In this document: positions 474 to 13,586 of the stretch, piece by piece
How the letters are laid out: each line of letters starts with the position of its first letter
Numbering within the stretch: position 1 is the first letter of the stretch
IMG/VR virus record: IMGVR_UViG_3300048576_000579
Location: 1 to 61,170 of that record
Length of the DNA stretch: 61,170 bases
DNA from: a virus
Lineage: Duplodnaviria; Caudoviricetes
Direction: 5' to 3' (one strand)
Translations under genes and position numbers: made by a program
The notes under the pieces: model-generated
Told to the model about the DNA's origin: nothing
Database searches by the model: none
What the model saw: only the letters and a program-made list of their open reading frames with translations

Positions 474-3400
474 CTACTCGGCTTCGTCCTCGTCCCCATC
501 CGCATCCTTCATCATCATCATAAATTGCTTACTCCCGCGCGCCATGCGCATGGCCTGGTTGCGCAGGTTCGACGCTCGAATGAACGATACGGCCCCCGCC
601 AGCTTGTGCTTTGCCACGCTCTGGTTAAACTTCTGAACATCGAGCACGATCTTTGACCATTCCGCAGAGTCCTTTTTCTGGCTCGCGTAGAAGGCCCGCG
701 CCCGCTCGTAAATCTCGTTGCGCCGCTCCGTGAACCCGGCCACGTCCGCCTTCGCCTCATGGGTCCGCTGCTTCAAGGATGACTCATCGGACGGCGTGAC
801 GCCCAAGGCCTTCAGCGTGGTTTCCGTCGCGCTCGGCCGGTAGGGATGACCCTTTTCGTCGTACACCCGCGCGCCGGTCTTGGTTGTGACGCCCTGTTCC
901 GACTCGCGGGCGGCCTGGAGCATGCGCCCTGCCGCGTTTGGCAAGGCCTTCTCGGCGGCCCGGCCATACTGCCCCTTTTTTAGATACCTCCAGGCGTCCG
1001 CCACGTCTCTCCACACGCCGCCTATCGGCCCAGAAACGTCACTGGCGCTGTCCGGAATGTTCGGCAGCATCTTCATGGAGCTGGTCAGGTTCATGCCCAT
1101 CAATCCGAACGCGCCGAACCGTGCGAAGTCGTCTACATGTCCGCCAAGGTTGCGCCGGATCATGTCGTGCAAGACCTTGTCCGGATCGCGGTCAGGCTCC
1201 AGCCCCTTGGCAATGGCCTGCGCCACCATCCAAGCGACCGACCCCGTACCACCCGCGAGCAGGACAGGCGAGAGCGTGAGCCAGGCGGCGGCCTTGGCGT
1301 TCTTCTGGCTGAGCCCCAGGTCGTAGAGCATTTGCAAGGTGTTGTGGCCGAACTTTTGGTACACGTACATGACCTGCCCGATGCGCCCCAACCCGGTCCC
1401 CCAGGCCAAGTACGGCATGGCCTCCTTGCCGTAGACGCCGTGCGCGCGGTCGCTCGCCAACTCCGCGCTCTTCATGGCCTGAGCATGATCCTGTCCAGCG
1501 CGGCGAGCCAAGCGGTAGGCGGCCAGCATTGTGCCGCCTCGGTTTGCCTGCTCGGTTTTGGAGAAGAACCACATGGCCCCCTTCATGGCCGTGGCCCACC
1601 CATCGCCCATGGCCGCCCGGTACGCACTCGACGCCTCGCGCGCGAATTGTGCGTCATCCAGATTCTTCCGCTTCACCTCGGCCATGAACGCGCGCTCATC
1701 GTCATTCTTGAGCGCTGATTCTCTCCCGGCGAAGGCCCACGCGGAATAGTCCTTGAGCCCTTGCGCCGTGGCCAGCGCAATCTGGCCCATCGAGCCCTTG
1801 CCGCCCAGCGCGTATTGGTGAATGGCCGGCGGGACGTTGGTGGCCAGCGCGACCATGTTCACGAGCGCGCTGCGCGGATTGAAGCCCAGGAACTTGAAGC
1901 TCGCGATCCCCTTGGCTAGGCCTATGGCTCTATCCGCGGCCTCGGCGTTCCGGAGCTGCTCCTTCAGATACTCAATGGAGTATTGGTAAGCCTCGGGTTC
2001 ATCCTTCGGATTAATCCCCTTGCCGTCCTTGCCGCCGAACAGCGCCAGCGTCGCCTGCTGCGCGGCTTCGCCCTTGGCCACGCCGTAAGCCGTCATGGTC
2101 GTGTAGGTCATAAAGCGCTTGCCGGGGTCCGTCTCGTATCCCAGAACCACTTCACCACGGCGCCCTTCGCGCTTAATCGACGCGGACCGGAAGCCGCGGG
2201 CCTTGATGTCGTCGGCCAGATTTTGAATCAAATCCTGGTAAAGCGCCTCTTTGACCTCATCCTGGACGGCGCCTTGCTTGCGCTCGACAGAAACAACCCT
2301 TTTCCCTTCATCGCGCATGCGGTCGGCAAGCGCCGGGTCCGTCGTGGTCTCGCGCATAGTTTCGGTCTTGCCCAAGCCCTTATCCTTGAGCCAGGTGATT
2401 TCCCAAACGCCTTTCGAGGCGCTGGCCGCCGAGCTGATCGCCTTGGCCATCTCCAGAGCCCGGATAGCCTGCTGCGTCGATTCCGGCAGGGCCTTGACCT
2501 TGCCCACAGGGTTCATCTTCCAGCCATCGCGCTCCATCTGCCTGCGTAGCATGGTCGCCTGCAATCCCGTGGCCGCGTGCTGGCGGTAGAACTCCCATTC
2601 GCCGGTCTCGGGATTCTTGCGCTTGCCCGTGACCGTGAAGCTCCCCTGATCGCGCTGGCGCGGCGCGTAGCTTCCGCGCAGCTCGCCCATGCGCTCAATC
2701 GCCTCTTTGAGCGACATCTGCACCACGCGGCCGGATTCGTCCGTGTATTCGACGTCCTTGAGGATCTTCTCAATGGGCACGCCACGCTCGTCGGCCTTCT
2801 TCTGTGCATCGGCCAGCATCTCTCGGTACGCCTTCAGCCGCAGGTCAAGCAGCTTGTCATACGCCTGACGCATGTCCTTCCAGAGGGAGATGGTCTCTTC
2901 CGAAGCCCCGTGCTCTTGAAAAACCTTTTCCGTGGCGTCCATCTTCCATTCGTTGACGTCGGCGCGGTCCATGATCTCGCCGAGCAGTTTGTATTGCTCT
3001 GGGGATTCTTTGGCCAGCTTCTTCAGGCCGGCATGGATCGTGGTCCCGTCCTCGCGCTGGAGCGTCTCGAACATGATCTCGTGAGCTCGATCCTGGCGGT
3101 TGCGGAAAACCTCGAATATCTTCCGGAATACCGGATGCTTGATCCATTCCGGAGAGCGCCCCAGCTTACCAAGGAAGCCGAACTCCGAGGCCTTTCCCGG
3201 CATGAGCATGTTGGACAGCGAGTATTGCAGGCCGGCCGCCACGTCCCCGACGAAAGCCTTGATCTTTGAGGAGTTGGCCATGGTCGGAGTGGGCGTGTCC
3301 TCGATGGGGGTGGAGAGGGAGAAGCGAATGTCCGGGTTGCGCGCCGAGAACGTGCCTACGTTGCCGGTGGCGGATTTGATTTGTTCAGGATCAATGACAG

Positions 3401-6400
3401 CAATCTCATTTATCTTGCCATTCTCCTCCATGATCAACGCGTCTGAAGTTATATTCTGGTAGTGCCCCCATGCTTTTTGACCGACATACACAGGGTTTAC
3501 AGACTTTATGTACACAGGATATACGGCTCCCCCAGATTCAGGAGCATAATGACCGGCATAGTCTGGATGCGGACTAAAAAAAGACCCTGACCGAAAATTC
3601 ATATAGCCATACGGACTATTTTCTGCTTTTGCCTTTCTGAAATGCTCTAATGCATGTTCATAGTCCCCGCGTGTTCCCCCTCCATTTGGCAAAAATGATG
3701 TTATGTCGCCATTCCCTGTGCCGTGATACACCACGAGCGGTTCGCCGTTTTCGTCAACAACCCGTGAGGGGAGATGTTCCGGCTTGACGTTTTCGAGAAG
3801 AGTGCTTATTTTCATCTCAGAGATACCCGCTTCGCCCGGTCCGGATTTGATATCCGGTCTCGGCAACCTAGCGGGTTTTTCTATTTCTGATAGGTAGTGG
3901 TCGTAGAAAAATGAACCATCTCTTGCCTTTTTAACTACTAATCTGGCAACATACTCGTCACCACCGATACGTAGCGGAGCATAGAAGTGGTAAACCGTGG
4001 GAATATTGTCGAACTGCTTCTGCTTTCTGTTTGTTTCGTACCCTACCAAAACAGCTTTTTTTAACAGTTCAGGGATAGCGGGAACAGACTGATTGTGAGC
4101 AATCTGCGCTGCATGGCGCATAGTTTCGTCTACCCCGACGCTGCCGATGATTATGCTCCATCCAGTATCAGCATTTACCGTCTTACTTTGCGTTTTTGAA
4201 GTGCGCAGATTTTCTAAAATCTCACGAGCCTTTTCTTGCATTTCTCTTATTGGGGTACCGGATGGGGAGATCTCATCCCCGCGCAGAACGGTGTAGGGGA
4301 CGGGGCTTTTTCGTAGCACTTCCCAATCCCCAAACCACTCCTTAAACCACGGCGTCCGCACCTGCTTCCACTGCAATTCGTTGAGCTGCGACGGTTTTCC
4401 ACTCGGCGCAAGCAAGCGCCCCTGCGTATCTCGCACCTCTTTCACCGCGTCGAGCTGTCGCTGCGCCTCGGCCTGGACGCGCTTTTGCTCCTCTGGCTTC
4501 AGGTTGCCAAAGTCGTGGCGCATCTCGGCCAGGGAGCGGGCTGCGGCTTTTCGTTCTGTCATCGACGCCCGCACCCCGGCCAACTCCCCGCCCATCGCGC
4601 CGCCAAAACCTTGCCCCGCGGTCTCGCGCGCCTGCCCCCGGCCGGTCAGCCAGTCGAAGCTGTCGCGCGCGATCTGCTCCATTTCTGGCCGGCTGAGCTT
4701 GTTGCCGGGGAGGATCTTCGTAACCAGGCGCTCCAAGAAATCGACGAACTTCTGCCAGAGCGTGCGCTCTTTCGGGCTGAGGTCTTCGCCGAGCTGCAAC
4801 TTCTCGGTGAGTTGGGCGTGCATTTCTTCAGCCAGCTCTAGGCGGTGTTCAGCGGAGGACATCCCATCTCGCTGAGGATAGAGGCGCTTGAGGTCGGCCC
4901 ATTCCTTGGAGCCTTCAAACGTTGCGGCCACACGGTGTAAGTAACCGACAAACTGCGCCTTCCACTGCTTTCCGAACTGCTGCTCGAAAAACCCACGCAA
5001 GCCATGATGACCCACGGACTCATGCAGCCAGACTTCTTTGGCCGACTCGAGCACGGAATGGGCAACGTCAGCCTCCCCCATCATGGCCCCGGCATTGAAA
5101 TAGATCGTCTGGGTTTTCGGATCGTAGACGGCGCGCATGGTCTGGCCTTCGGGAATCTGGTCGATGACATGGCGGGGGGCTTCGTCCATGGACGCGAGCA
5201 CCTTGATTGCGATGCCGCGTTTGGCGATTTTTTGGAGCGGTTCAAGCTGCTTTTCGAGGGCGGAGACTTGGGCGGGGGTGGCCCTTCTTTCTCCAGAGGC
5301 CTCGCTGTGCGAAAAGCGCGCGTCGTCCACGTTCAAGGCCTGGCCAAGTTCTTCTGCACTCGCGCCTCCCTCCGTCTTGACTCCATCGGCCTGGAGCTCC
5401 TTCTCCAGTTGCGCGACCTTGGCCACGGCTTCGGCCAGGGTGGACTCTTGCGGGAATGGCGCGCCTATTCTGCGATCATAAGAGGCCTTCTCGTCCTTGT
5501 TTCCTTGGATGCTCTTCAGCCTGTTTGAGAGATCGCGTTGCACCATGATATTGGCTTCTTTGACGCGACGCGCAAGCGTTGTCCCGGCCGTTTCCTCCAG
5601 GTTTATGGCGCCACTCCCGTACGCAGGCCGCAAGTCAAAGCGCCGCTTGTTCTTGGAAACAAAAATGTCTCCGATACGGCATTCCCCGTCCTGTAGGCGC
5701 TCTAGATCCAGGTAGATATTCTGATCGCCTTGACGCTTGCCCAGGAGCCGCGTCGCCTCTTTCGCCTTGCCTTGCTTGAACTGCTCCAGCTCCTTGGCCG
5801 CCTTGGCCCAGAGTGCGTCCCCCGCCGCGCGGTCGCCTTCGTAGTGCTTCCCGTCGATCTCCATAAAGAAGTCTTTCGACGCCAGATACCCCTCGTCACC
5901 CAAGTCCTTGAGCAATGCGGACAGTTCGTTTACACGCTCAGTTCCGCTTTTGATGCTGCTGGAAAGGCTTCGCGACTCTCGTTTGAAACGTATCTGCTCG
6001 TTGTGATGCGCAGCCTGTAACGACTCCAACCGTTGCACTTCTCCGCGCAGCTTTACCAGCTCGATAGCGCGCTCGTCGCCTGCTGCCAGGGCCGCGGCCA
6101 TTTCAAACTGCGAGGCCTCGCCCACGTCGTCGAGGTTGCGAACGGTGTCATCGCCGGAAAAGGCCTGATCAATGAATTTTTGTTTGCGGGCCAGGCTGCC
6201 CCACTGCGTCGAGTCGTAGGTGCCTTTCGTGGCGTACCAGTTTATCGAGATTTTTTTGTTCAGGTTCCCCTGTCGCAGGATGCGGCCATGCGCCTGCTCG
6301 ACCGCGGCCGGATACCAGGGTGGGCTCAGGTAGTGTAATTCCTTGAGACGACGCTGAACATTCAACCCCGTCCCCATATTCTTAGACGATCCGAAAAGGA

Positions 6401-9400
6401 TGCGCTTGGTCCCGGCGCGCAGCTCCTTGAAGAGCGCCTCCTTCTTGGCGTGCGTGTTGTAATCCTCCATCCAGGCAATTTCAGAGGGGTTCACCCCAGC
6501 CTCTTTCAACCGTCCGTTGATGAAGGCCTTGACGTCAAAACCGCGGTTCTTGCGCACAGCCTCGCCAAACCCGACGTCTGAAAAAACAATCTGCGTTGCG
6601 CCAGGCCTTTTCTCCCCGTCGTAGCGCTCTTGGGTTGTCCGTTTGTGGGTCGCAATGATCTTGTCGATCATCTGGTTCAGCTTAGAGTTCTTGTCGTCCT
6701 TGGCGCCGACAAGCCGCAGATCAATCGCCGCCAGTCGACCGTCCGTGATGATATTGATCAGAGGGTCAGGGTTTCCGGGCTGATCTTTGCTCGGCTTGAA
6801 TTTCTTGCTGATTTCGATGCGGCGTTGCAGCTCTCCCTTGAGATAGGCGTTCAGGGCGTCCGACGGCTGTACGACGACGTTCGTGGGGTTTCCCTGGTTT
6901 GTCAGCGTCGGTCGTTTTACGATGTCGCCCAACTGCTTGGAGCCCATAACATCCATGAACGTGAGCACGCGCTTCATGAGCTCAGGGACGTTGACGAACT
7001 TGGCGAAGCGCTCGACGGTCTCATATGATCCGGCCGCGTTCTGCTCGACCAGGGCGGCAACCTCGCCGAACATTTGGGACCAAGCGTCGAAGTGCTCCAT
7101 GCCGCCCCTTTCCAATCCTTCGGGGTCCATGTAGCGCATGATCGAGTACAGCTCGCCCATGGTATTGACGACGGGCGTCCCGGACGCGAATACGTGCGAG
7201 CGACCCGGGTTTTGCTTGGCCAAATGCAACGTCTTGACGTAGAGGTCCATGGCCTTGGCAGAGCCATTCGGGTCAATCCCCTTCAAACCCATGCGGTTCG
7301 TGACAAACTCCAGCTTCCTGAACTCGTGAGCCTCGTCCACATAGAGAAAATCAACGCCCATGTCCTCAAATGAGACGATGCCGTCTTTTTCCTCCTTGGC
7401 CGCTTTACTCATGATTTTGGATTCGAGATTTTCTTTCTGCTTCTCCAGCTTCTTGCGGGTGATCCTGTCGCCGGTTTCGACGTCATCCAGGGCTGCATCA
7501 AGCTGTTCCAAAAATTCGTTGACGACGCTGCGCAACGACTCCTCGCGCACGCCAATCTTGCCGAAAGAGCTGTGCGTGATGATGATGGCGTCCGGATCGT
7601 TCAGCGCAGCCTGAGCAAAGAAGCGTCGCCGGTTGGAGGTATGAAAGCCCTTTTCGTCCGCGACCATGATGTTCGCCAGCGGGTAGGCGTCCACAAACTC
7701 GGATGCGAACTGCTGCAGCATGTGATTCGGGACCACGTACATGGGCCGCTTGACCAGCCCGACGCGGCGTTGCTCCATGCCCGAGACGATCATTTCCAAA
7801 GTCTTGCCGGCGCCTACCGCATGGTTCAGGTAGGTTGTACCGGTCTGCAGGACGCGCCAAATCGCCCGTTTTTGGTGGTCGTAGAGCTTGTACTTGAGCG
7901 AGAGCCCCGGCAGGGTAAGGTGGCTACCGTCGAACTTGCGCGGCGCCAGGTTGTTGAAATTCCGATTGTAGTAGGCGGTCAGTTCTTCAGTGCGTTTGGC
8001 GTCTGTCCAAAGCCAATTTCTGAACGCCTCTTTGATCTTGGAGACTTTTTCTTGCGCCGCCGCCGTCTCTTCTTTGTTCGTGAAGGTTTTTGTGCTTTTA
8101 TCAACGGTGACGGTATCTTTGATGGTTACAGTGCGGTTGTTCATAGCCGCAGAGAGCAAGGCCGCCGGTGGGCGTCTGACCGTGCCCCATTCGCTGGCCG
8201 CCGTCCCCTTGCTGTTCTCTCCGACGACGAACCAGACGCCGGCATCGCGGCTATAGGAGATCCCGGAGTGGAGCTCCATGATCTCCTTGGCGAACTGCTC
8301 AATGTGCGCGGAATCGACCCACGGCGCCCCAAGGGCGACCGTGATCTCCGACGGATTCAGCGGCCGCGGCTGGACCCTGAGCAGTGCCTGGACGTTGCGC
8401 TCAAAGCGTTCGTCCGACTTGGCCACGGTCTGCGCCTCCTCCAGCTTAGACACGACGTCGCCAGAGAGGTATTCATCGGCCGTCTGCCAGCCGTGACTGG
8501 GATCTTCAAAGACCGCATCGCCCAACTCCTCGATGACTCGCTCTCGCGACGATCCGGCAAGCTCGGCGATATGGGCGATGTCGAGCCGCCCCAGGTCGTT
8601 CAGGGAGACGGCCAGGGCGTCTTGTGCGGTCTTGATCTCCGGCCGCGAAGGTTTTTTGATCGTTCGTCCTTTAAAGAAATTCCCCTTCTGAATCTGGTTA
8701 TTGGAGTCAATCGTTTCGAGCGCTTCCATGAGCGAGCGCTCATAGTCAAGGTCAAGCAGCTTCTCCCGTTTGTGTCTGCGAGAAACCGCTACAACGTCCT
8801 CGCCCTCATCGTTTTTAGCTTTGCGTTCAATGACCATGAATTCACGAATCTGGCCATGCTCACGCACAAAAGCGTCATAGGCCTTTCCCAGGGCCTTAAG
8901 TGAAGACTCCCAGTCACCGTCGTTGATCTGGTCATGTTGCGCCTGCTTGAGTAACACCTTGAGCGACGCGTATCCCTTGAGCCAGCTCTTTTCTTCAGGC
9001 TTGACCTTGGCGATTTCATCCACCGAAACGCCAGCCCCGTCCTGGACCACGCGGACCTCGCCCGAACCATCCACGTACAGCGCACCTTCGCGCTTGACGT
9101 TCGGGTTGAAATCCTTCTCGGCTGTCCTGGCGTTTGTGACTTCCGCCTTTTTCCCTTGGGACTCCATGTAGACGTCCTTGGGCAGGTTCTCGACGGCCTT
9201 GGCAAAATGCGCCTCAATGTCGCCGTCCATCGGCGTGACCGTGTATTCACCCCGATAGCGCATCTTCCCCGACAAGCTGTGCTCGCCCAGGACCATCTCC
9301 GGATGCTGTACGAAGTATTCATTGACCAGCGTCGGGCCTTCCGGCGTCTTGACCTCGTCTAGGCCAAGCCAGGATTCTCCGCTCTTGGCCGCGCCCTCCT

Positions 9401-12400
9401 CGCGCTTGCGCAGAAAAAGGACGTCCGTGACCACGTCGGTTCCGGCGTTCTGCTTGAAGGCTGTTTGCGGCAGACGCACGGCGCCGAGCAAGTCAGCGCG
9501 GTCTGCCAGGTACTGGCGCGCCGCGTCGTCGGCCTTGTCCATGGTGTAGCGGCTGGTCACGAAGACAAGCAGACCGCCTGGGCGTACGCGGTCGATGGAT
9601 TTTGCGAAGAAGTAGTCATGGAGCGCGAAGCGGTTCTTCCGGTATTCCGGATCAGACATTACCTTCGTGCTCGAAAAAGGCGGATTCCCAATCGCCAGGT
9701 CAAAATAATCCTTGGGGAGCTTCTGCTTGGAGAAATCGCCCTCGATGACGTTGGCGTTGGGCAAGAGTTGCTTGGCGATGGCCGCGGTCATGGAGTCCAT
9801 CTCTACGCCGACATAATGGATGTTGTTGGCGATATGCTGCGGCGCGGCTATGGGGAAGAGGCCAACGCCCATGCCAGGCTCCAGGACATTTCCTTGCGTG
9901 AAGCCAAGACGCTCCAGACCGGACCAGATCGACCGAATGACTTTTTCCGACGTGTAATGCGCGTACTGCGTCGAGCGCATGGCCGTGCGCAGCTCTTCGG
10001 GGCCAAACAGGGAAACAACCCGCGTGACGAGGTCTTTCCACTCAGGCCTGGCCCGGTCCAGGTCTATTCGGCCGTCGTAGCTGCTGACAGGAAAAAGATT
10101 CTGGGAGAGTTCAGACGCGCCCCAGCCCGTCCATTTTACGAGCTGGGCCTGCTCTTCCGGCGTGGCTTGGCGTTGCTCCTGCTGGAGCTTTTTGACGAGT
10201 TCGACGATACCGAGGTTGCGTTCGGCGGTCTTTTTCCACGACCCCTCTCGCGCGAGGGAGCCTTCGGGCGCTACATAGTTTCCGCCTCTTCCTCGTCTTC
10301 TATCGGCAGGTCCGCGATCCCCTCCTCTATGGCTATCTTCCAGCATTGGTTCGCCCACATGTGCGCCTGCTGGAAGATCTCCAGCCCGTCCTCTGGTTCT
10401 TCCTTTCCGCTCCCTCCGAGTTCTCTGGTCATCGCCTCTTCGCGAATCGCCTCCATTCTTCCTTGCAGGAACTCGTTCAGCGTCCCGTCCTTCTCCATCT
10501 CGCTGTACGCCTTGGGTGCTCTGTCCTTGAGCGCCACCCTGAGCATCTCTAGCATTTTGTGATGTGGCATCCACATGGCTTTTCGCCTCCGTTTGCTCAG
10601 ATTTTACGCTTGTATTGGGGGCGTTGTCTACATGCTGGAGCTGTTCCTGCGTCTCTTTTTTGGGGGCCGCAGTCCGCGCCGGACCCGCCTCGTCATACCC
10701 TACGTCCTGCTGCTCGCCGAAATCAACATGTTCCTCAACGCCGGCATTGAATCTCTCCTCCGCCAAAGCCCGCGCGTACCGATGCACCTTCGCCTTCTCC
10801 GGGAACTTCTTCTCGACGGCCTCGACGCTGCCGAGCTTGTCCACGACCTTGGAAACGTGCTCGCGCATACCAGGCGTGAGCGTAGCGCCAAGTTCTTGAG
10901 CCCCTGGCGCTTTCGTCTTCGCTACCGAAAACCTTTCTTCAGCGAGCATCCGAGCATACCGCTGGGCTGTCGCTTTTTCCGATGGATACTGTTTAGAGAC
11001 TGCTTCAACGCTTCCGAGCGCATCCACATTTTGGGATATTTTGTTTCTCAAAGCTGGCTTTAACGCTCGCCCGAGCGCTTCTCGCACCATGAGCAGGCGC
11101 TGCCGATCTTCATCAACTCCCTGGTTGGCTTTGCCGAGTTCTTCAGAAGACGAAGAGGGAGACGCAACCTCGGCCGCACCCCGTGTCGAAACAGGCGGTG
11201 CTGCTGGGCTGGCTGCTCCTGGCTGATTCGCGTGCTGCTCGACTTGAGCCCCTGTTGCCTGTTCTTGGTTCTGAAGGACGGCCGTGCGCACGGAAGCGGC
11301 CGGAATGCCGGTCACAGTCGCTTTCCCTTCTCCCTCCATGCCCTGTGCCGAATTCTTTTCTTGCGCTCCTCCTGGGGCAACCTCGGGCGTCGTTTGTGTC
11401 TCACCAGTGAGAGGCAATTGGTTTTGCATCTCACGAACGGGCGATTGCTGAGACGCAACGGGTTGGACGGAAGGAGACGCCGCGAACGGATCGCCCTCGA
11501 TTCCATCGACCCCGGCCGGAAGGTCGGATGCGCCCACGCTCCCCTCGAACCCAGGCGCGGCATGGTCGGGCATTTGCGGCGCCGCGTAGCGTTCCTCCGC
11601 CAAGGCGCGGGCGTAGCGCTCGCCCACGCTGTTCCCGCGGAAAACCTTCTGCACCTTCTCCAGCGAGCCGAGCCTGTCAACGCGGCGGGCTATACCCTCC
11701 AGGGCCTTCGGCTTCAGCGTCTGCTGGGCCTCGGCGAAGATCTCCATGGCGGTTGGCGCGGCGGGAGCTGTTTCCGTTTTGGAAAGAGTTGGGGCGGCAG
11801 ACGCCACGGGTTGCGCCGCCTGCTCCGGAGTCGTGGGCTGCTGCTCGGTCGGGGAAGCGGGGGCCGCCGGCTCGACCTGCGCCTGCTGCGCGGCCGAACG
11901 CTCCTCGAAAATCCGCTCAGCGAGCGCGACCGTGTACCGGCTACGCGGGGACTTGTCCGCGAACGTTTTCCTGATAAGTTGTAAGTCGTTGATTTTCTCT
12001 ATGTTTTTCGCCGCCGTCTCGCGCGTATTAGGGCGCAGGTGCGTCTCCCCGTACGCAAGAACATCCTCGCGCGAAGCCTCTGGCGGTAATCCTGCCTGCC
12101 GTTGCCGCTCTTCAACCTGCGCCTCTTCCGAGTTCCGGCCGGCGATCTCCATGCGCTGGGCCGGGGTGGCGTCGGGGGGGATTGGCAGAGGCGGGGCGGT
12201 GCTTGCCGTCCGCGGCTGTTCCTCCTGCGGTTGGACTTGACCTTGTTGGGGGATTAGGTCGGCGAACGGGTTGGCCTCTTGAGTTAACTCAGGGGCTAAC
12301 TCTTGGGGCATGCCTCCAAGGCCGAGGGCGCCGTAGTTGGAAGAGCCAAGCTCCTTCCAGAGAGCGGAAAGACGCTCTTGCTCTTCCAGGGTTGATTTGC

Positions 12401-13586
12401 CTGACGCATCGCGTTTGAGCAATCCAGAGAATTCTTGTTCCGGCCGTTGCTGACCTGATCCATGGGCGAAGCCGTGCGCGAGGTTCGTTCCGCCGCCCAT
12501 CAAAAACGCGCCTGGAGCGACATCTAAACCCTGGAGCGTCTGCTGCCCCATTTTGCCCACGACGTCTTGCTGGTCCTTGGCGTACAGATGATTCAGAAAG
12601 TCGCCAATGGATTTATCTCGAAACGCCAGCTTGGTCTCTTCGCCTATAAAAGGCGAGCGGCCGACATTTTCAAAAAAAGCTTGTGCTGGCTCTTCTAACA
12701 CTTCGGTCAACGCCTCTGTGCTGCCAGACGTGACGGCATTGCCAATTTTTTTGGCCAAAGATTGTCCAGATGGACCCAAAACGGCGTCAAGCCCCAGCTT
12801 GTTGAGCGCCCAGGACGCGACGCCGTAGCTACCTGCGCGCATGGCGGCCTCTGGAGCGGACACCCCCTGGCCTCGCAAATCATGATAGGACGGCAACGCC
12901 TCCTGGGCGGCGCCAAGGGCGGCGCCAACTCCTGTTCGCAAACCCTGCGGCCCTGCAGCGATGATCGACGGCCCCATACTGACGGCGCCCTCGATAGCGC
13001 CGCGAGCAAGATACCTCGGGTCCAACAACAGCTCTGGATTCTCGAAAAGTCTTTTCCCCTGATAGGCCTCAGGCCCAATCATATCCAGTCCCTGAGCTTG
13101 CTGTGACCAAAAGTCAGCAGACTTCTTTCCCGTCTCCGCGAGCGTCTCCGAGCCAATGGCGTCCCCGAGCAGCTGTACCCCGGCCCCGGCCCCCTGGATG
13201 ATGGATGCCCCGCCACGCGCCAGCCCTTGGTAAAGCGCGCTCTTCGGCAACGGCGTGTCGCTGAACGGGTTCAGAGCTTGCACCTCCTCCTTGAGGCCTG
13301 CGCCCATCCGCGCGAAGTATCCTTGCTCCGGTTGCTGGGGCTGGACAAGCGTTGGCTTCAATAACTCGTGAATTGCCCGCTGATCATGACTCGCTGGCCG
13401 CACTCCAAGTCTAAGAAGCGCCTCAGCCTCTGGCGTATCCTGTCCCGGCATAACCATGCCTTGCCCCGAGGGCTGCGCAGGCGCTTGCGTCTGCGGCGCT
13501 GGGATCAAATCGGCGAAGGGGTTCGCTTCGGGCTGCGCCCCCTGCGGCGCTCCGGCTGGGATCAAATCGGCAAAAGGATTGTCCAC
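474..13586 (-). CDS. Giant DarB-like large polyvalent protein (N6-adenine MTase + SNF2 helicase + zincin metallopeptidase + LPD3-like RNase + ADP-ribosyltransferase + LPD38-like C-terminus), probably virion-injected
   Basis: VLEPGMGVGLF and IGNPPF (MTase); HAVGAGKT, VDEAH, SGTP, QAHGRILRQGN (SF2/SNF2); HESVGH (HExxxH zincin); VYHGT..FFS..NEIAV (ART); last gene of the structural operon. Confidence 0.92.
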   Translation of the reverse strand: MDNPFADLIPAGAPQGAQPEANPFADLIPAPQTQAPAQPSGQGMVMPGQDTPEAEALLRLGVRPASHDQRAIHELLKPTLVQPQQPEQGYFARMGAGLKEEVQALNPFSDTPLPKSALYQGLARGGASIIQGAGAGVQLLGDAIGSETLAETGKKSADFWSQQAQGLDMIGPEAYQGKRLFENPELLLDPRYLARGAIEGAVSMGPSIIAAGPQGLRTGVGAALGAAQEALPSYHDLRGQGVSAPEAAMRAGSYGVASWALNKLGLDAVLGPSGQSLAKKIGNAVTSGSTEALTEVLEEPAQAFFENVGRSPFIGEETKLAFRDKSIGDFLNHLYAKDQQDVVGKMGQQTLQGLDVAPGAFLMGGGTNLAHGFAHGSGQQRPEQEFSGLLKRDASGKSTLEEQERLSALWKELGSSNYGALGLGGMPQELAPELTQEANPFADLIPQQGQVQPQEEQPRTASTAPPLPIPPDATPAQRMEIAGRNSEEAQVEERQRQAGLPPEASREDVLAYGETHLRPNTRETAAKNIEKINDLQLIRKTFADKSPRSRYTVALAERIFEERSAAQQAQVEPAAPASPTEQQPTTPEQAAQPVASAAPTLSKTETAPAAPTAMEIFAEAQQTLKPKALEGIARRVDRLGSLEKVQKVFRGNSVGERYARALAEERYAAPQMPDHAAPGFEGSVGASDLPAGVDGIEGDPFAASPSVQPVASQQSPVREMQNQLPLTGETQTTPEVAPGGAQEKNSAQGMEGEGKATVTGIPAASVRTAVLQNQEQATGAQVEQHANQPGAASPAAPPVSTRGAAEVASPSSSSEELGKANQGVDEDRQRLLMVREALGRALKPALRNKISQNVDALGSVEAVSKQYPSEKATAQRYARMLAEERFSVAKTKAPGAQELGATLTPGMREHVSKVVDKLGSVEAVEKKFPEKAKVHRYARALAEERFNAGVEEHVDFGEQQDVGYDEAGPARTAAPKKETQEQLQHVDNAPNTSVKSEQTEAKSHVDATSQNARDAQGGAQGQSTQGVQRDGEGRDAERVPARKNGGDSRRGDDQRTRRERKGRTRGRAGDLPAGAHVGEPMLEDSHRGGDRGPADRRRGRGGNYVAPEGSLAREGSWKKTAERNLGIVELVKKLQQEQRQATPEEQAQLVKWTGWGASELSQNLFPVSSYDGRIDLDRARPEWKDLVTRVVSLFGPEELRTAMRSTQYAHYTSEKVIRSIWSGLERLGFTQGNVLEPGMGVGLFPIAAPQHIANNIHYVGVEMDSMTAAIAKQLLPNANVIEGDFSKQKLPKDYFDLAIGNPPFSSTKVMSDPEYRKNRFALHDYFFAKSIDRVRPGGLLVFVTSRYTMDKADDAARQYLADRADLLGAVRLPQTAFKQNAGTDVVTDVLFLRKREEGAAKSGESWLGLDEVKTPEGPTLVNEYFVQHPEMVLGEHSLSGKMRYRGEYTVTPMDGDIEAHFAKAVENLPKDVYMESQGKKAEVTNARTAEKDFNPNVKREGALYVDGSGEVRVVQDGAGVSVDEIAKVKPEEKSWLKGYASLKVLLKQAQHDQINDGDWESSLKALGKAYDAFVREHGQIREFMVIERKAKNDEGEDVVAVSRRHKREKLLDLDYERSLMEALETIDSNNQIQKGNFFKGRTIKKPSRPEIKTAQDALAVSLNDLGRLDIAHIAELAGSSRERVIEELGDAVFEDPSHGWQTADEYLSGDVVSKLEEAQTVAKSDERFERNVQALLRVQPRPLNPSEITVALGAPWVDSAHIEQFAKEIMELHSGISYSRDAGVWFVVGENSKGTAASEWGTVRRPPAALLSAAMNNRTVTIKDTVTVDKSTKTFTNKEETAAAQEKVSKIKEAFRNWLWTDAKRTEELTAYYNRNFNNLAPRKFDGSHLTLPGLSLKYKLYDHQKRAIWRVLQTGTTYLNHAVGAGKTLEMIVSGMEQRRVGLVKRPMYVVPNHMLQQFASEFVDAYPLANIMVADEKGFHTSNRRRFFAQAALNDPDAIIITHSSFGKIGVREESLRSVVNEFLEQLDAALDDVETGDRITRKKLEKQKENLESKIMSKAAKEEKDGIVSFEDMGVDFLYVDEAHEFRKLEFVTNRMGLKGIDPNGSAKAMDLYVKTLHLAKQNPGRSHVFASGTPVVNTMGELYSIMRYMDPEGLERGGMEHFDAWSQMFGEVAALVEQNAAGSYETVERFAKFVNVPELMKRVLTFMDVMGSKQLGDIVKRPTLTNQGNPTNVVVQPSDALNAYLKGELQRRIEISKKFKPSKDQPGNPDPLINIITDGRLAAIDLRLVGAKDDKNSKLNQMIDKIIATHKRTTQERYDGEKRPGATQIVFSDVGFGEAVRKNRGFDVKAFINGRLKEAGVNPSEIAWMEDYNTHAKKEALFKELRAGTKRILFGSSKNMGTGLNVQRRLKELHYLSPPWYPAAVEQAHGRILRQGNLNKKISINWYATKGTYDSTQWGSLARKQKFIDQAFSGDDTVRNLDDVGEASQFEMAAALAAGDERAIELVKLRGEVQRLESLQAAHHNEQIRFKRESRSLSSSIKSGTERVNELSALLKDLGDEGYLASKDFFMEIDGKHYEGDRAAGDALWAKAAKELEQFKQGKAKEATRLLGKRQGDQNIYLDLERLQDGECRIGDIFVSKNKRRFDLRPAYGSGAINLEETAGTTLARRVKEANIMVQRDLSNRLKSIQGNKDEKASYDRRIGAPFPQESTLAEAVAKVAQLEKELQADGVKTEGGASAEELGQALNVDDARFSHSEASGERRATPAQVSALEKQLEPLQKIAKRGIAIKVLASMDEAPRHVIDQIPEGQTMRAVYDPKTQTIYFNAGAMMGEADVAHSVLESAKEVWLHESVGHHGLRGFFEQQFGKQWKAQFVGYLHRVAATFEGSKEWADLKRLYPQRDGMSSAEHRLELAEEMHAQLTEKLQLGEDLSPKERTLWQKFVDFLERLVTKILPGNKLSRPEMEQIARDSFDWLTGRGQARETAGQGFGGAMGGELAGVRASMTERKAAARSLAEMRHDFGNLKPEEQKRVQAEAQRQLDAVKEVRDTQGRLLAPSGKPSQLNELQWKQVRTPWFKEWFGDWEVLRKSPVPYTVLRGDEISPSGTPIREMQEKAREILENLRTSKTQSKTVNADTGWSIIIGSVGVDETMRHAAQIAHNQSVPAIPELLKKAVLVGYETNRKQKQFDNIPTVYHFYAPLRIGGDEYVARLVVKKARDGSFFYDHYLSEIEKPARLPRPDIKSGPGEAGISEMKISTLLENVKPEHLPSRVVDENGEPLVVYHGTGNGDITSFLPNGGGTRGDYEHALEHFRKAKAENSPYGYMNFRSGSFFSPHPDYAGHYAPESGGAVYPVYIKSVNPVYVGQKAWGHYQNITSDALIMEENGKINEIAVIDPEQIKSATGNVGTFSARNPDIRFSLSTPIEDTPTPTMANSSKIKAFVGDVAAGLQYSLSNMLMPGKASEFGFLGKLGRSPEWIKHPVFRKIFEVFRNRQDRAHEIMFETLQREDGTTIHAGLKKLAKESPEQYKLLGEIMDRADVNEWKMDATEKVFQEHGASEETISLWKDMRQAYDKLLDLRLKAYREMLADAQKKADERGVPIEKILKDVEYTDESGRVVQMSLKEAIERMGELRGSYAPRQRDQGSFTVTGKRKNPETGEWEFYRQHAATGLQATMLRRQMERDGWKMNPVGKVKALPESTQQAIRALEMAKAISSAASASKGVWEITWLKDKGLGKTETMRETTTDPALADRMRDEGKRVVSVERKQGAVQDEVKEALYQDLIQNLADDIKARGFRSASIKREGRRGEVVLGYETDPGKRFMTYTTMTAYGVAKGEAAQQATLALFGGKDGKGINPKDEPEAYQYSIEYLKEQLRNAEAADRAIGLAKGIASFKFLGFNPRSALVNMVALATNVPPAIHQYALGGKGSMGQIALATAQGLKDYSAWAFAGRESALKNDDERAFMAEVKRKNLDDAQFAREASSAYRAAMGDGWATAMKGAMWFFSKTEQANRGGTMLAAYRLARRAGQDHAQAMKSAELASDRAHGVYGKEAMPYLAWGTGLGRIGQVMYVYQKFGHNTLQMLYDLGLSQKNAKAAAWLTLSPVLLAGGTGSVAWMVAQAIAKGLEPDRDPDKVLHDMIRRNLGGHVDDFARFGAFGLMGMNLTSSMKMLPNIPDSASDVSGPIGGVWRDVADAWRYLKKGQYGRAAEKALPNAAGRMLQAARESEQGVTTKTGARVYDEKGHPYRPSATETTLKALGVTPSDESSLKQRTHEAKADVAGFTERRNEIYERARAFYASQKKDSAEWSKIVLDVQKFNQSVAKHKLAGAVSFIRASNLRNQAMRMARGSKQFMMMMKDADGDEDEAE
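3784..3812 (+). promoter_or_regulatory. Putative antisense sigma70 promoter inside the giant gene
   Basis: TTGACG (3784-3789), 17-nt spacer, TATTTT (3807-3812). Confidence 0.5.
3819..3882 (+). ncRNA. Putative ~64-nt antisense small RNA (rod hairpin ending in a U-tract)
   Basis: AGAGATACCCGCT pairs with AGCGGGTTTTTCT; inner stem CCGGAT/ATCCGG; starts 7 nt after the -10 box. Confidence 0.45.
10271..10576 (-). CDS. Nested out-of-frame 101-aa helical protein (TnpV-like pattern) inside the giant gene
   Basis: GGAGG SD at 10590-10586, 9 nt before ATG; own promoter; globular acidic composition, while the host frame here is R/G/D-rich and looks off-frame. Confidence 0.75.
   Translation of the reverse strand: MWMPHHKMLEMLRVALKDRAPKAYSEMEKDGTLNEFLQGRMEAIREEAMTRELGGSGKEEPEDGLEIFQQAHMWANQCWKIAIEEGIADLPIEDEEEAETM
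10601..10630 (-). promoter_or_regulatory. Internal sigma70 promoter for the nested gene
   Basis: TAGACA (10630-10625), 18-nt spacer, TAAAAT (10606-10601), then SD and ATG. Confidence 0.6.

Follow-up and report, generated by a model that had tools for sequence, protein, structure and literature searches.

Organization of the locus

The window analyzed in this study is the whole 61,170-nt stretch of DNA held as record IMGVR_UViG_3300048576_000579, a complete provirus record in IMG/VR with ~60% GC. On its minus strand lies a giant gene for a DarB-like polyvalent protein of 4370 aa, and nested out of frame within that gene is an open reading frame (ORF) of 101 codons, preceded by its own Shine-Dalgarno (SD) sequence, which is the subject of this report. 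An earlier reading of the letters and ORFs, made without database searches (the sequence-only reading), had proposed this ORF as a complete hidden transcription unit. All the elements it named were found in place (TAGACA-N18-TAAAAT, GGAGG, 9 nt, ATG at 10576, 101-aa ORF to 10271), and the translation is the peptide it had quoted. The features referred to below are:

10271..10576, minus strand: nested ORF (putative gene), 101 aa plus stop, ATG 10576-10574, TAG stop 10273-10271
10586..10590, minus strand: Shine-Dalgarno sequence GGAGG, 9-nt spacer to the nested ATG
10601..10630, minus strand: sigma-70-like promoter candidate TAGACA-18-TAAAAT, 10/12 matches, TAGACA 10630-10625 and TAAAAT 10606-10601
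474..13586, minus strand: giant DarB-like polyvalent protein gene, 4370 aa, the host frame (from the ORF list and Pfam)
10271..10577, minus strand: giant-frame linker over the nested ORF, R/G/D-rich, giant residues 1004-1105
5838..10247, minus strand: LPD36-methylase-superfamily 2 (SF2) helicase module, giant residues ~1114-2583, starting ~24 nt past the nested stop
8658..9086, minus strand: docking region for the nested protein according to complex prediction, giant residues ~1501-1643, between methylase and helicase

The nested ORF is offset by +1 relative to the giant ORF ((13586-10576) mod 3 = 1), and across it the giant frame reads HVDATSQNARDAQGG...RGGNYV (residues 1004-1105). The giant gene is the final gene of a long minus-strand block. 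Its product matched LPD3 (81.9 bits), ART-PolyVal (60.6) and Eco57I methylase (31.2) above the Pfam cutoffs, with weak matches to SNF2/ResIII/Helicase_C. The motifs GSWKKTAERN (from residue 1115), WTGWGAS (at 1152) and NPPF (at 1301) were present, and profile matches in the PDB were to the TaqI and BsaXI methylases. The LPD36-methylase-helicase dyad is defined in the accessible text of PMC5512222. LPD36, an N6-adenine methylase, an SF2 helicase and further polyvalent domains occur together in the giant protein, as in the DarB-like polyvalent definition, LPD36 being assigned without a Pfam score. On the plus strand, an antisense ORF of 365 codons (9465..10562) overlaps the nested ORF; it is one of many long shadow ORFs in the window and has no coding evidence.

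Distribution of the nested ORF

A tblastn search of the nested ORF against 50,697 phage records returned 27 records, all of them DarB-like genes of Burkholderia/Ralstonia podophages. In Bcep22, DC1, GP4 and Gerry the match was again in the +1 frame of the annotated coding sequence (CDS), where the ORF starts with ATG, runs for 107 codons and stops immediately ahead of the giant-frame motif GSW(K/R)x(T/A)AE. An intact ATG-started +1 ORF, with an SD, was found in all 18 Burkholderia/Ralstonia phage loci examined, so that conservation of the alternative frame, which the sequence-only reading had put forward as a test, was observed. For a search that did not presuppose the nested ORF, the N-terminus of the giant-frame methylase was used as query and 14 IMG/VR loci were retrieved. 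Seven of these, from four lineages, carried a +1 ORF of 83-124 codons in the same place, five low-GC loci had no nested ORF before LPD36 (the +1 frame contains stops and the giant frame is structured there), and two had a different architecture. The nested proteins align with two invariant prolines.

Bacterial genome loci (n = 29, several phyla) were collected with a profile of eight small proteins. At 15 of the 29 the small ORF is nested in +1 within open frames of 2970 to >4800 codons. When the giant protein was searched by tblastn against these 15 loci, alignments started at residues 1103-1124 and ran to ~2583, and window residues ~1114-2583 align from shortly past the nested stop. With one family member as tblastn query, 21 further phage records (~12 phages) were found, with hosts in Ochrobactrum, Sinorhizobium, Agrobacterium, Erwinia, Klebsiella, Vibrio, Pseudomonas and Microcystis, and under each of the 21 matches only a single large gene is annotated. 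The offset was +1 in five of the six further phages checked (POI1126, PEp14, SopranoGao, VvAW1 and Mwe-JY07), where the giant gene is the only annotation. In the sixth, Pseudomonas phage Itty13 (L074, locus 601-816), the TnpV-like match runs antisense to the sole annotated CDS, which encodes a hypothetical protein of 1153 aa and may have been annotated on the wrong strand. Across the 29 phage records inspected with annotation, only the large gene is annotated over the nested DNA, this being the giant gene in all but Itty13.

The position of the nested ORF directly before LPD36, whichever domain lies upstream, was kept in 22/22 non-Firmicutes loci measured. The proposal that the ORF stops where the methylase-helicase module begins thus holds well beyond the window.

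Selection on the two frames

Three groups of close relatives were compared (6 Burkholderia phages, 10 Ralstonia phages and 4 IMG/VR contigs). GP4 (L003) and YL1 (L024) were excluded from the comparison with the flank, GP4 for a downstream deletion and YL1 for a shorter annotated CDS in which a deletion was assumed; with both kept in, the overlap counts by group were 33/15/21, 14/11/6 and 6/3/1, and the downstream count of the Ralstonia group was scrambled. Minimum substitutions at giant codon positions 1/2/3 were 50/28/28 in the overlap vs. 65/41/250 in the next 1200 nt (chi-square, P = 5.6e-15). Position 1 of the giant frame is position 3 of the nested frame, and its share of the substitutions exceeded one third (P = 0.002). 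Ratios of nonsynonymous to synonymous substitution rates (dN/dS, NG86), which are biased in overlapping frames and were used for direction only, were ~0.4-0.55, 0.26 and 0.17 for the nested frame in the three groups, ~0.9-1.0, 1.5 and undefined (dS 0 in the third group) for the giant frame in the overlap, and 0.13-0.17, 0.15 and 0.05 for the giant frame downstream. Per-frame dN/dS had been proposed as a check on the nested ORF, and its direction (nested 0.17-0.55 vs. host frame ~0.9 or higher) agrees with coding in that frame.

Codon usage gave the same direction. Mean GC content at third codon positions (GC3) over 22 loci was 0.81 in the nested frame, 0.41 in the giant frame of the overlap and 0.76 in the giant frame downstream; the nested value exceeded the giant-in-overlap value in 22/22 loci, and in the window the two were 0.74 and 0.34. 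The hydrophobic share was 0.09 in the giant-frame linker vs. 0.31 in the nested protein. An AlphaFold2 (AF2) prediction from an alignment of 20 giant-frame segments gave a predicted local distance difference test (pLDDT) of 44-49 and no secondary structure over the overlap, vs. 75-94 in the adjacent LPD36 helices. The giant frame had been read as a shadow frame with R/G/D bias that acts as a linker, a description that these values bear out.

No giant-frame stop was found over the nested ORF in 22/22 loci. With the nested protein fixed, the giant frame would be open with P = 0.001-0.30 per lineage by resampling (~2e-12 jointly over 7 lineages; 0.007 in the window). From -60 to +150 relative to the nested stop, 10/22 loci had no start codon in the giant frame, and in the other 12 most candidate downstream starts lacked an SD-like motif.

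Substitution patterns and codon usage therefore support genuine coding in the nested frame, with purifying selection acting on it, and the overlying giant frame has the behaviour of a linker that is free of constraint and predicted to be disordered. Because the giant frame is kept open and structureless while the nested frame is selected, the DNA is, on comparative and model evidence, dual-coding: one frame would give a small protein with a fold, the other a linker predicted to lack order.

Initiation and promoter

An SD-like motif was present at -16..-5 of the nested start in 21/22 loci with a spacing of 5-10 nt, and the start codon was ATG in 20/22 loci and GTG in 2/22. Open +1 sequence ahead of the nested start spans just 0-61 codons in the 22 loci (0 codons in L055, 4 in L044, 5 in L038 and L058, and 9 in the window). 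Given the spacing of SD and start and the short upstream opening, internal initiation is favoured over frameshifting for translation of the putative nested gene.

The promoter-like site of the window is unique within 9800-11200 (1400 nt) on both strands, where 0.3 were expected from shuffles, and is a suggestive candidate only. Strict sigma-70-like sites 51-63 nt upstream of the nested start were found in 3 of the 8 lineages scanned (the window, JC1 and L005). A TACAAT box was seen in Bcep22 and BcepIL02 and TGgTAGAAT in the L007 group, and no comparable box was found upstream of the nested start in Gerry, L006 and L011 in the same scan. No terminator-like site was found on the minus strand close to the nested stop. 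An internal promoter thus appears plausible for the window, as no general feature, and to speak of a complete transcription unit overstated the case: the ORF and its SD stand, the promoter is strict in only 3/8 lineages, and the terminator is lacking.

For the giant protein, DarB-like gp69 of phage JC1 was virion-associated by mass spectrometry (PMC9144972, accessible text), and since it was seen in virions the giant protein was taken as made. As far as that text goes, the JC1 virion mass spectrometry reports the giant protein only.

The small-protein family and its relation to TnpV

A profile of seven nested ORFs was searched against 1.84 billion representative proteins and matched 203 at E ≤ 1e-3 (12 at ≤ 1e-10), nearly all of 70-130 aa and matched end to end. 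The family consensus is W..qAR.HWKE..P..Y..L...G.L..AL..AAE.T...L...G....EAWE.VRE.YLFPPEE. An AF2 model of the nested protein (41-row alignment) had a pLDDT of 77.7 with four helices (residues 5-19, 21-30, 33-54 and 64-84) followed by an acidic tail, in line with the ordered helical protein that had been predicted from the letters.

TnpV (PF14198) matched 12/41 family members at E ≤ 0.01 (best 4.6e-5). Five of 10 family members scored 15.9-19.2 bits against it and the Bcep22 homologue 14.2, the gathering cutoff being 27 bits; these sub-threshold matches share one register, protein residues 5-65 against profile positions 24-86. The family alignment A3 was compared by hhalign with alignment A7 (4 canonical TnpV, 142-148 bits) and gave a probability of 50% and E = 1.6e-4 over 51 columns of the N-terminal half only, the C-terminal halves remaining unaligned. 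TnpV was annotated on 13-28% of the members of the three nearest Atlas clusters (scores 0.86-0.88), a lead only. As the matches stay below the 27-bit cutoff, the nested protein is labelled TnpV-like rather than TnpV; the resemblance noted in the sequence-only reading thus appears real in the family, if remote, and the window protein itself has no hit.

Both groups appear to be small all-helical proteins of ~100-120 aa encoded on mobile elements, and they share the N-terminal pattern hydrophobic-K-E/D-x-x-P-x-x-Y...G-x-L...L. They also share their setting. Each of the five low-GC records without an ORF before LPD36 (L064-L068, the IMG/VR records of L012-L016) carries a canonical TnpV of 142-148 bits, and in these 5/5 Firmicutes-type records it is nested in +1 in the giant polyvalent gene ~280 codons from the giant start (e.g. 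L067:1489-1839, plus strand), whereas the nested ORF of the window family lies directly before LPD36. AGGAG precedes the ATG of the canonical nested TnpV, nested GC3 is 0.63-0.87 vs. 0.33-0.36 in the host frame, and the host reading over it is a G/S/D/R/E/Q-rich linker. The N-terminal domain before it in the Firmicutes-type giants is one that we take to be ArdC-like. Judging from these frames, the wider TnpV family thus seems prone to nesting in the linkers of polyvalent genes.

TnpV is named after a protein of Tn4451. The sole role proposed for it is in excision, by likeness to lambda Xis (PMC3158075, accessible text). An Xis-like role fits the four-helix model poorly and would draw no support from it.

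Fold searches were run on the nested model. Foldseek, one of the checks suggested beforehand, found no match at E ≤ 1e-3 in PDB or BFVD. The best hit of a wide VIA-align search had Z = 7.3 (SRI domain), below the noise level of that tool for helical models, and no fold was assigned. A PDB sequence search with the family profile retrieved designed helical repeat proteins only, and NCBIfam gave scattered single matches only on the 41 family members. For model m1598c21c0617, ~12 of the best 50 VIA-align rows were extracytoplasmic function (ECF) sigma region 2 (Z 5-7, below noise), a lead only.

Some family members (P0018, P0029, P0055, P0075, L037 and L043) have long hydrophobic C-terminal extensions that resemble membrane segments. 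In P0033 and P0076 the TnpV-like domain is in frame with a 'DPE..G.T.AG.YIE.G...KPYL.SFWE' domain, in reversed order between the two; in Bcep22-like genes the giant frame carries this domain ahead of the nested ORF. The neighbours of free-standing members were uninformative (a McrBC-type restriction system beside L043, and DEAD and RecD/PIF1-like helicases around L040).

Predicted interaction with the methylase-helicase module

Because the nested ORF stays directly before LPD36 whatever precedes it, binding to the module was tested by complex prediction of the nested protein with giant residues 1106-1700. The median score of three runs was 0.63 (0.63, 0.54 and 0.63) and the best of 3 controls was 0.00; the mark of the method was reached by 58 of 80 solved complexes vs. 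2 of 110 mismatched pairs, a calibration that is only rough, since our own alignments were used. Contact agreement between runs was at least 84% and partner pLDDT at least 78. The predicted interface comprises residues 45-75 of the nested protein, including an invariant proline and the most conserved helix of the family, and giant residues ~1501-1643 (chain-1 residues 396-538), a region for which no covering solved structure was found.

Ralstonia phage GP4 (L003, locus ~1830-1900) has a natural in-frame deletion of LPD36 and methylase (window residues ~1124-1491), by which the giant frame joins residue ~1123 to 1492 in window numbering, and the nested ORF and the predicted docking region are both kept. 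The annotated giant gene of YL1 is shorter too. On the model, we put the chance that the nested protein binds the methylase-helicase module at about even, and roles as a helper, an inhibitor or a regulator would each be compatible with the present evidence.

Weight of the evidence and alternative explanations

Taken together, we consider it probable (roughly 0.8) that the nested ORF is a functional overlapping gene, and the account set out below under the proposed model appears to be the best overall explanation at about the same confidence. Several points weigh against this reading. Openness of the +1 frame by itself is not significant and is expected by chance: with the giant protein fixed, it stayed open in 73% of 5000 synonymous resamplings of the window (51-82% across 7 lineages), because an R/G/D-rich giant frame has few codons that create +1 stops. 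The overlap holds only 106 substitutions across the three groups, and the NG86 ratios carry the bias given above. Stops in this frame, or loss of SD and promoter in homologues, had been named as grounds for abandoning the idea; the SD was kept in 21/22 loci, the strict promoter is missing in 5/8 lineages, and +1 stops occur in 5 low-GC loci. The window protein matched no Pfam family at E ≤ 10 and nothing in PHROGs, and is a divergent member with 10-29% identity to other members in alignment A3. No biochemical role could be assigned by fold, as the fold searches were uninformative, and direct evidence of expression was seen for none of the nested proteins. The complex score is a model confidence and no measurement. 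At 14 of the 29 bacterial loci the small ORF is free-standing or has extra C-terminal segments, with no DarB-like gene within the fetched flanks. Because of these loci, and because canonical TnpV is nested elsewhere in Firmicutes-type giants, a specific tie of the family to the methylase-helicase module is, from gene positions, not general. The idea of a partner that travels with the module accordingly divides: the predicted docking (0.63 vs. 0.00 for the control) and the conserved adjacency speak for a partner, and the 14/29 loci speak against exclusive travel.

Openness by chance would be the simplest alternative, the +1 frame being open because the R/G/D-rich giant frame avoids stop-creating codons and the motifs being coincidental. 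The resampling probabilities (0.51-0.82) and the many long shadow ORFs of a ~60% GC window agree with it, but homology, the substitution pattern, GC3 and the conservation of SD and ATG put the nested ORF beyond chance; 203 profile hits, free-standing homologues, the shift in codon positions, GC3 in 22/22 loci, the SD in 21/22 and a confident fold contradict this explanation, which we regard as the least credible of those considered. A less improbable alternative, though still an improbable one, is a fossil: the giant would have arisen by read-through of a formerly free-standing TnpV-like gene, leaving the +1 ORF as an unexpressed, unneeded relic. The overlap does resemble a fusion scar, free-standing relatives exist, and the window copy is divergent. 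A relic would, however, be expected to decay in its ORF and SD, its substitution pattern and its GC3, and is disfavoured for that reason: ORF, ATG and SD are kept across lineages with only ~20-30% identity in the nested ORF, substitutions concentrate at nested third positions with nested dN/dS < 1, and nested GC3 is genome-typical in 22/22 loci.

Two further alternatives concern how the frames are read, and both seem very unlikely, to a similar degree. SD-like sequences can stimulate frameshifting, as in prfB and dnaX, so the SD-like sequence before the nested start might serve a +1 shift just upstream that ends at the nested stop and yields an N-terminal giant fragment with a TnpV-like tail; P0033, P0064 and P0021 do carry a TnpV-like domain in frame behind other domains. 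Against this, the +1 frame of L055, L044, L038, L058 and the window closes 0-9 codons ahead of the start, and the start codon stands at the family N-terminus 5-10 nt past the SD, which is initiation spacing. Alternatively, the giant ORF could be an annotation artefact in which the N-terminal and methylase-helicase parts are made separately and the overlapping giant frame is an untranslated shadow, as its atypical GC3 (0.41), dN/dS near 1 and lack of predicted structure would allow. That frame is nevertheless open in 22/22 loci though expected to be open in 0.1-30% of resamplings per lineage (~2e-12 jointly over 7), a start codon for the downstream part is missing around the nested stop in 10/22 loci, and where candidates exist most are not accompanied by an SD-like motif.

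Proposed model

We propose dual coding over these 306 nt, in which the +1 frame is a gene for a four-helix protein of ~100 aa from a widespread family of small proteins that would be a remote relative of TnpV. The small protein would be translated from its own SD and ATG embedded in the giant mRNA and, in the window, its gene may also be transcribed from the internal sigma-70-like promoter. The giant gene would be read through in the -1 frame relative to the small gene, giving the R/G/D-rich disordered linker that joins the N-terminal modules to the LPD36-methylase-helicase module. The small gene is probably the older reading, because it has a normal codon signature and free-standing relatives; the linker would then have been overprinted, fusing two neighbouring genes without loss of the small one. 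Judging from the predicted complex and the conserved adjacency, the small protein is most likely a trans-acting factor that docks on a helical stretch of the giant between the methylase and the helicase, and it could serve as an assembly or packaging helper or as a regulator of the module.

Relation to known systems

Complete genes with their own start in the +1 frame of a larger phage gene are a known class, to which the Rz/Rz1 spanin genes of lambdoid phages belong, whose products cooperate. The embedded +1 gene with its own start is common to that case and to the present one; the families and functions are unrelated, the nested gene appears here to be the older reading with the host frame overprinted, the gene that houses it is polyvalent and exceeds 4000 codons, and several bacterial phyla show the arrangement. 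Novel aspects appear to be which family is embedded and in which host gene, how widely the arrangement occurs (in phages, prophages and other elements of several phyla), its absence from annotation and the direction in which overprinting seems to have run.

Phage P1 also pairs a DarB-type methylase-helicase with a small adjacent gene product, Ulx, whose role is tabulated as 'aids DarB localization' in the accessible part of PMC9024508; ulx differs in being a separate gene downstream of darB. Ulx was tried as a homologue of the nested protein and rejected (hhalign probability 0.3%, E = 0.22). In Escherichia coli gnd, going by the title of bioRxiv 10.64898/2026.10.22.760973, the out-of-frame product GndA recruits the host-frame protein. 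An out-of-frame product tied to its host-frame protein is the shared trait, and the differences are a cellular housekeeping gene and a much smaller product. In the literature covered on Bcep22, DarB, TnpV, polyvalent proteins and overlapping genes, which did not extend to supplements, subscription journals or the original Bcep22 paper (Gill et al. 2011), no gene nested in a DarB-like or polyvalent gene was reported, and the accessible parts of PMC9144972, PMC5512222, PMC9024508, PMC3158075 and PMC9815147 mention none.

Other features of the giant gene and the record

Giant residues ~1-960 (window 10700-13586, minus strand) contain four copies of a ~45-residue helical unit, which end in RYAR(A/M)LAEER(F/Y) or RYTVALAERIF near residues 560, 667, 886 and 946. 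The N-terminal third also has three NPFADLIP motifs (residues 3, 22 and 439) and is unlike the N-terminal region of Bcep22-like genes. A search of sequencing runs with the window listed no RNA run; the matches were 4 wastewater runs from a single study, at low shares (0.12-0.18) and stored as contigs.

Implications

The observation of the sequence-only reading is confirmed, its interpretation appears largely right for the gene, and the role it suggested is plausible on the structural models. Double-stranded DNA phages and bacteria rarely have out-of-frame genes of ~100 codons with conservation across phyla, and such genes are filtered out by annotation pipelines. The case would reverse classical overprinting, in that the embedded gene looks older and the host frame is a newcomer used as a spacer for the fusion of modules. 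A wider reading, which we hold only tentatively and think unlikely to prove correct in full, is that the linker with its hidden +1 gene is a portable dual-coding joint with which phages and conjugative elements weld effector modules into giant polyvalent genes, and which still yields a free TnpV-family protein docking on the methylase-helicase, perhaps holding the module inactive or guiding packaging in the producer cell; on that view TnpV-family proteins might serve polyvalent proteins as partners in trans and have no part in transposition. The orphan TnpV family gains a testable context, and a probable unlisted component is added to the DarB-type anti-restriction systems, whose importance lies in phage host range and in candidates for phage therapy, e.g. 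the Burkholderia and Ralstonia podophages.

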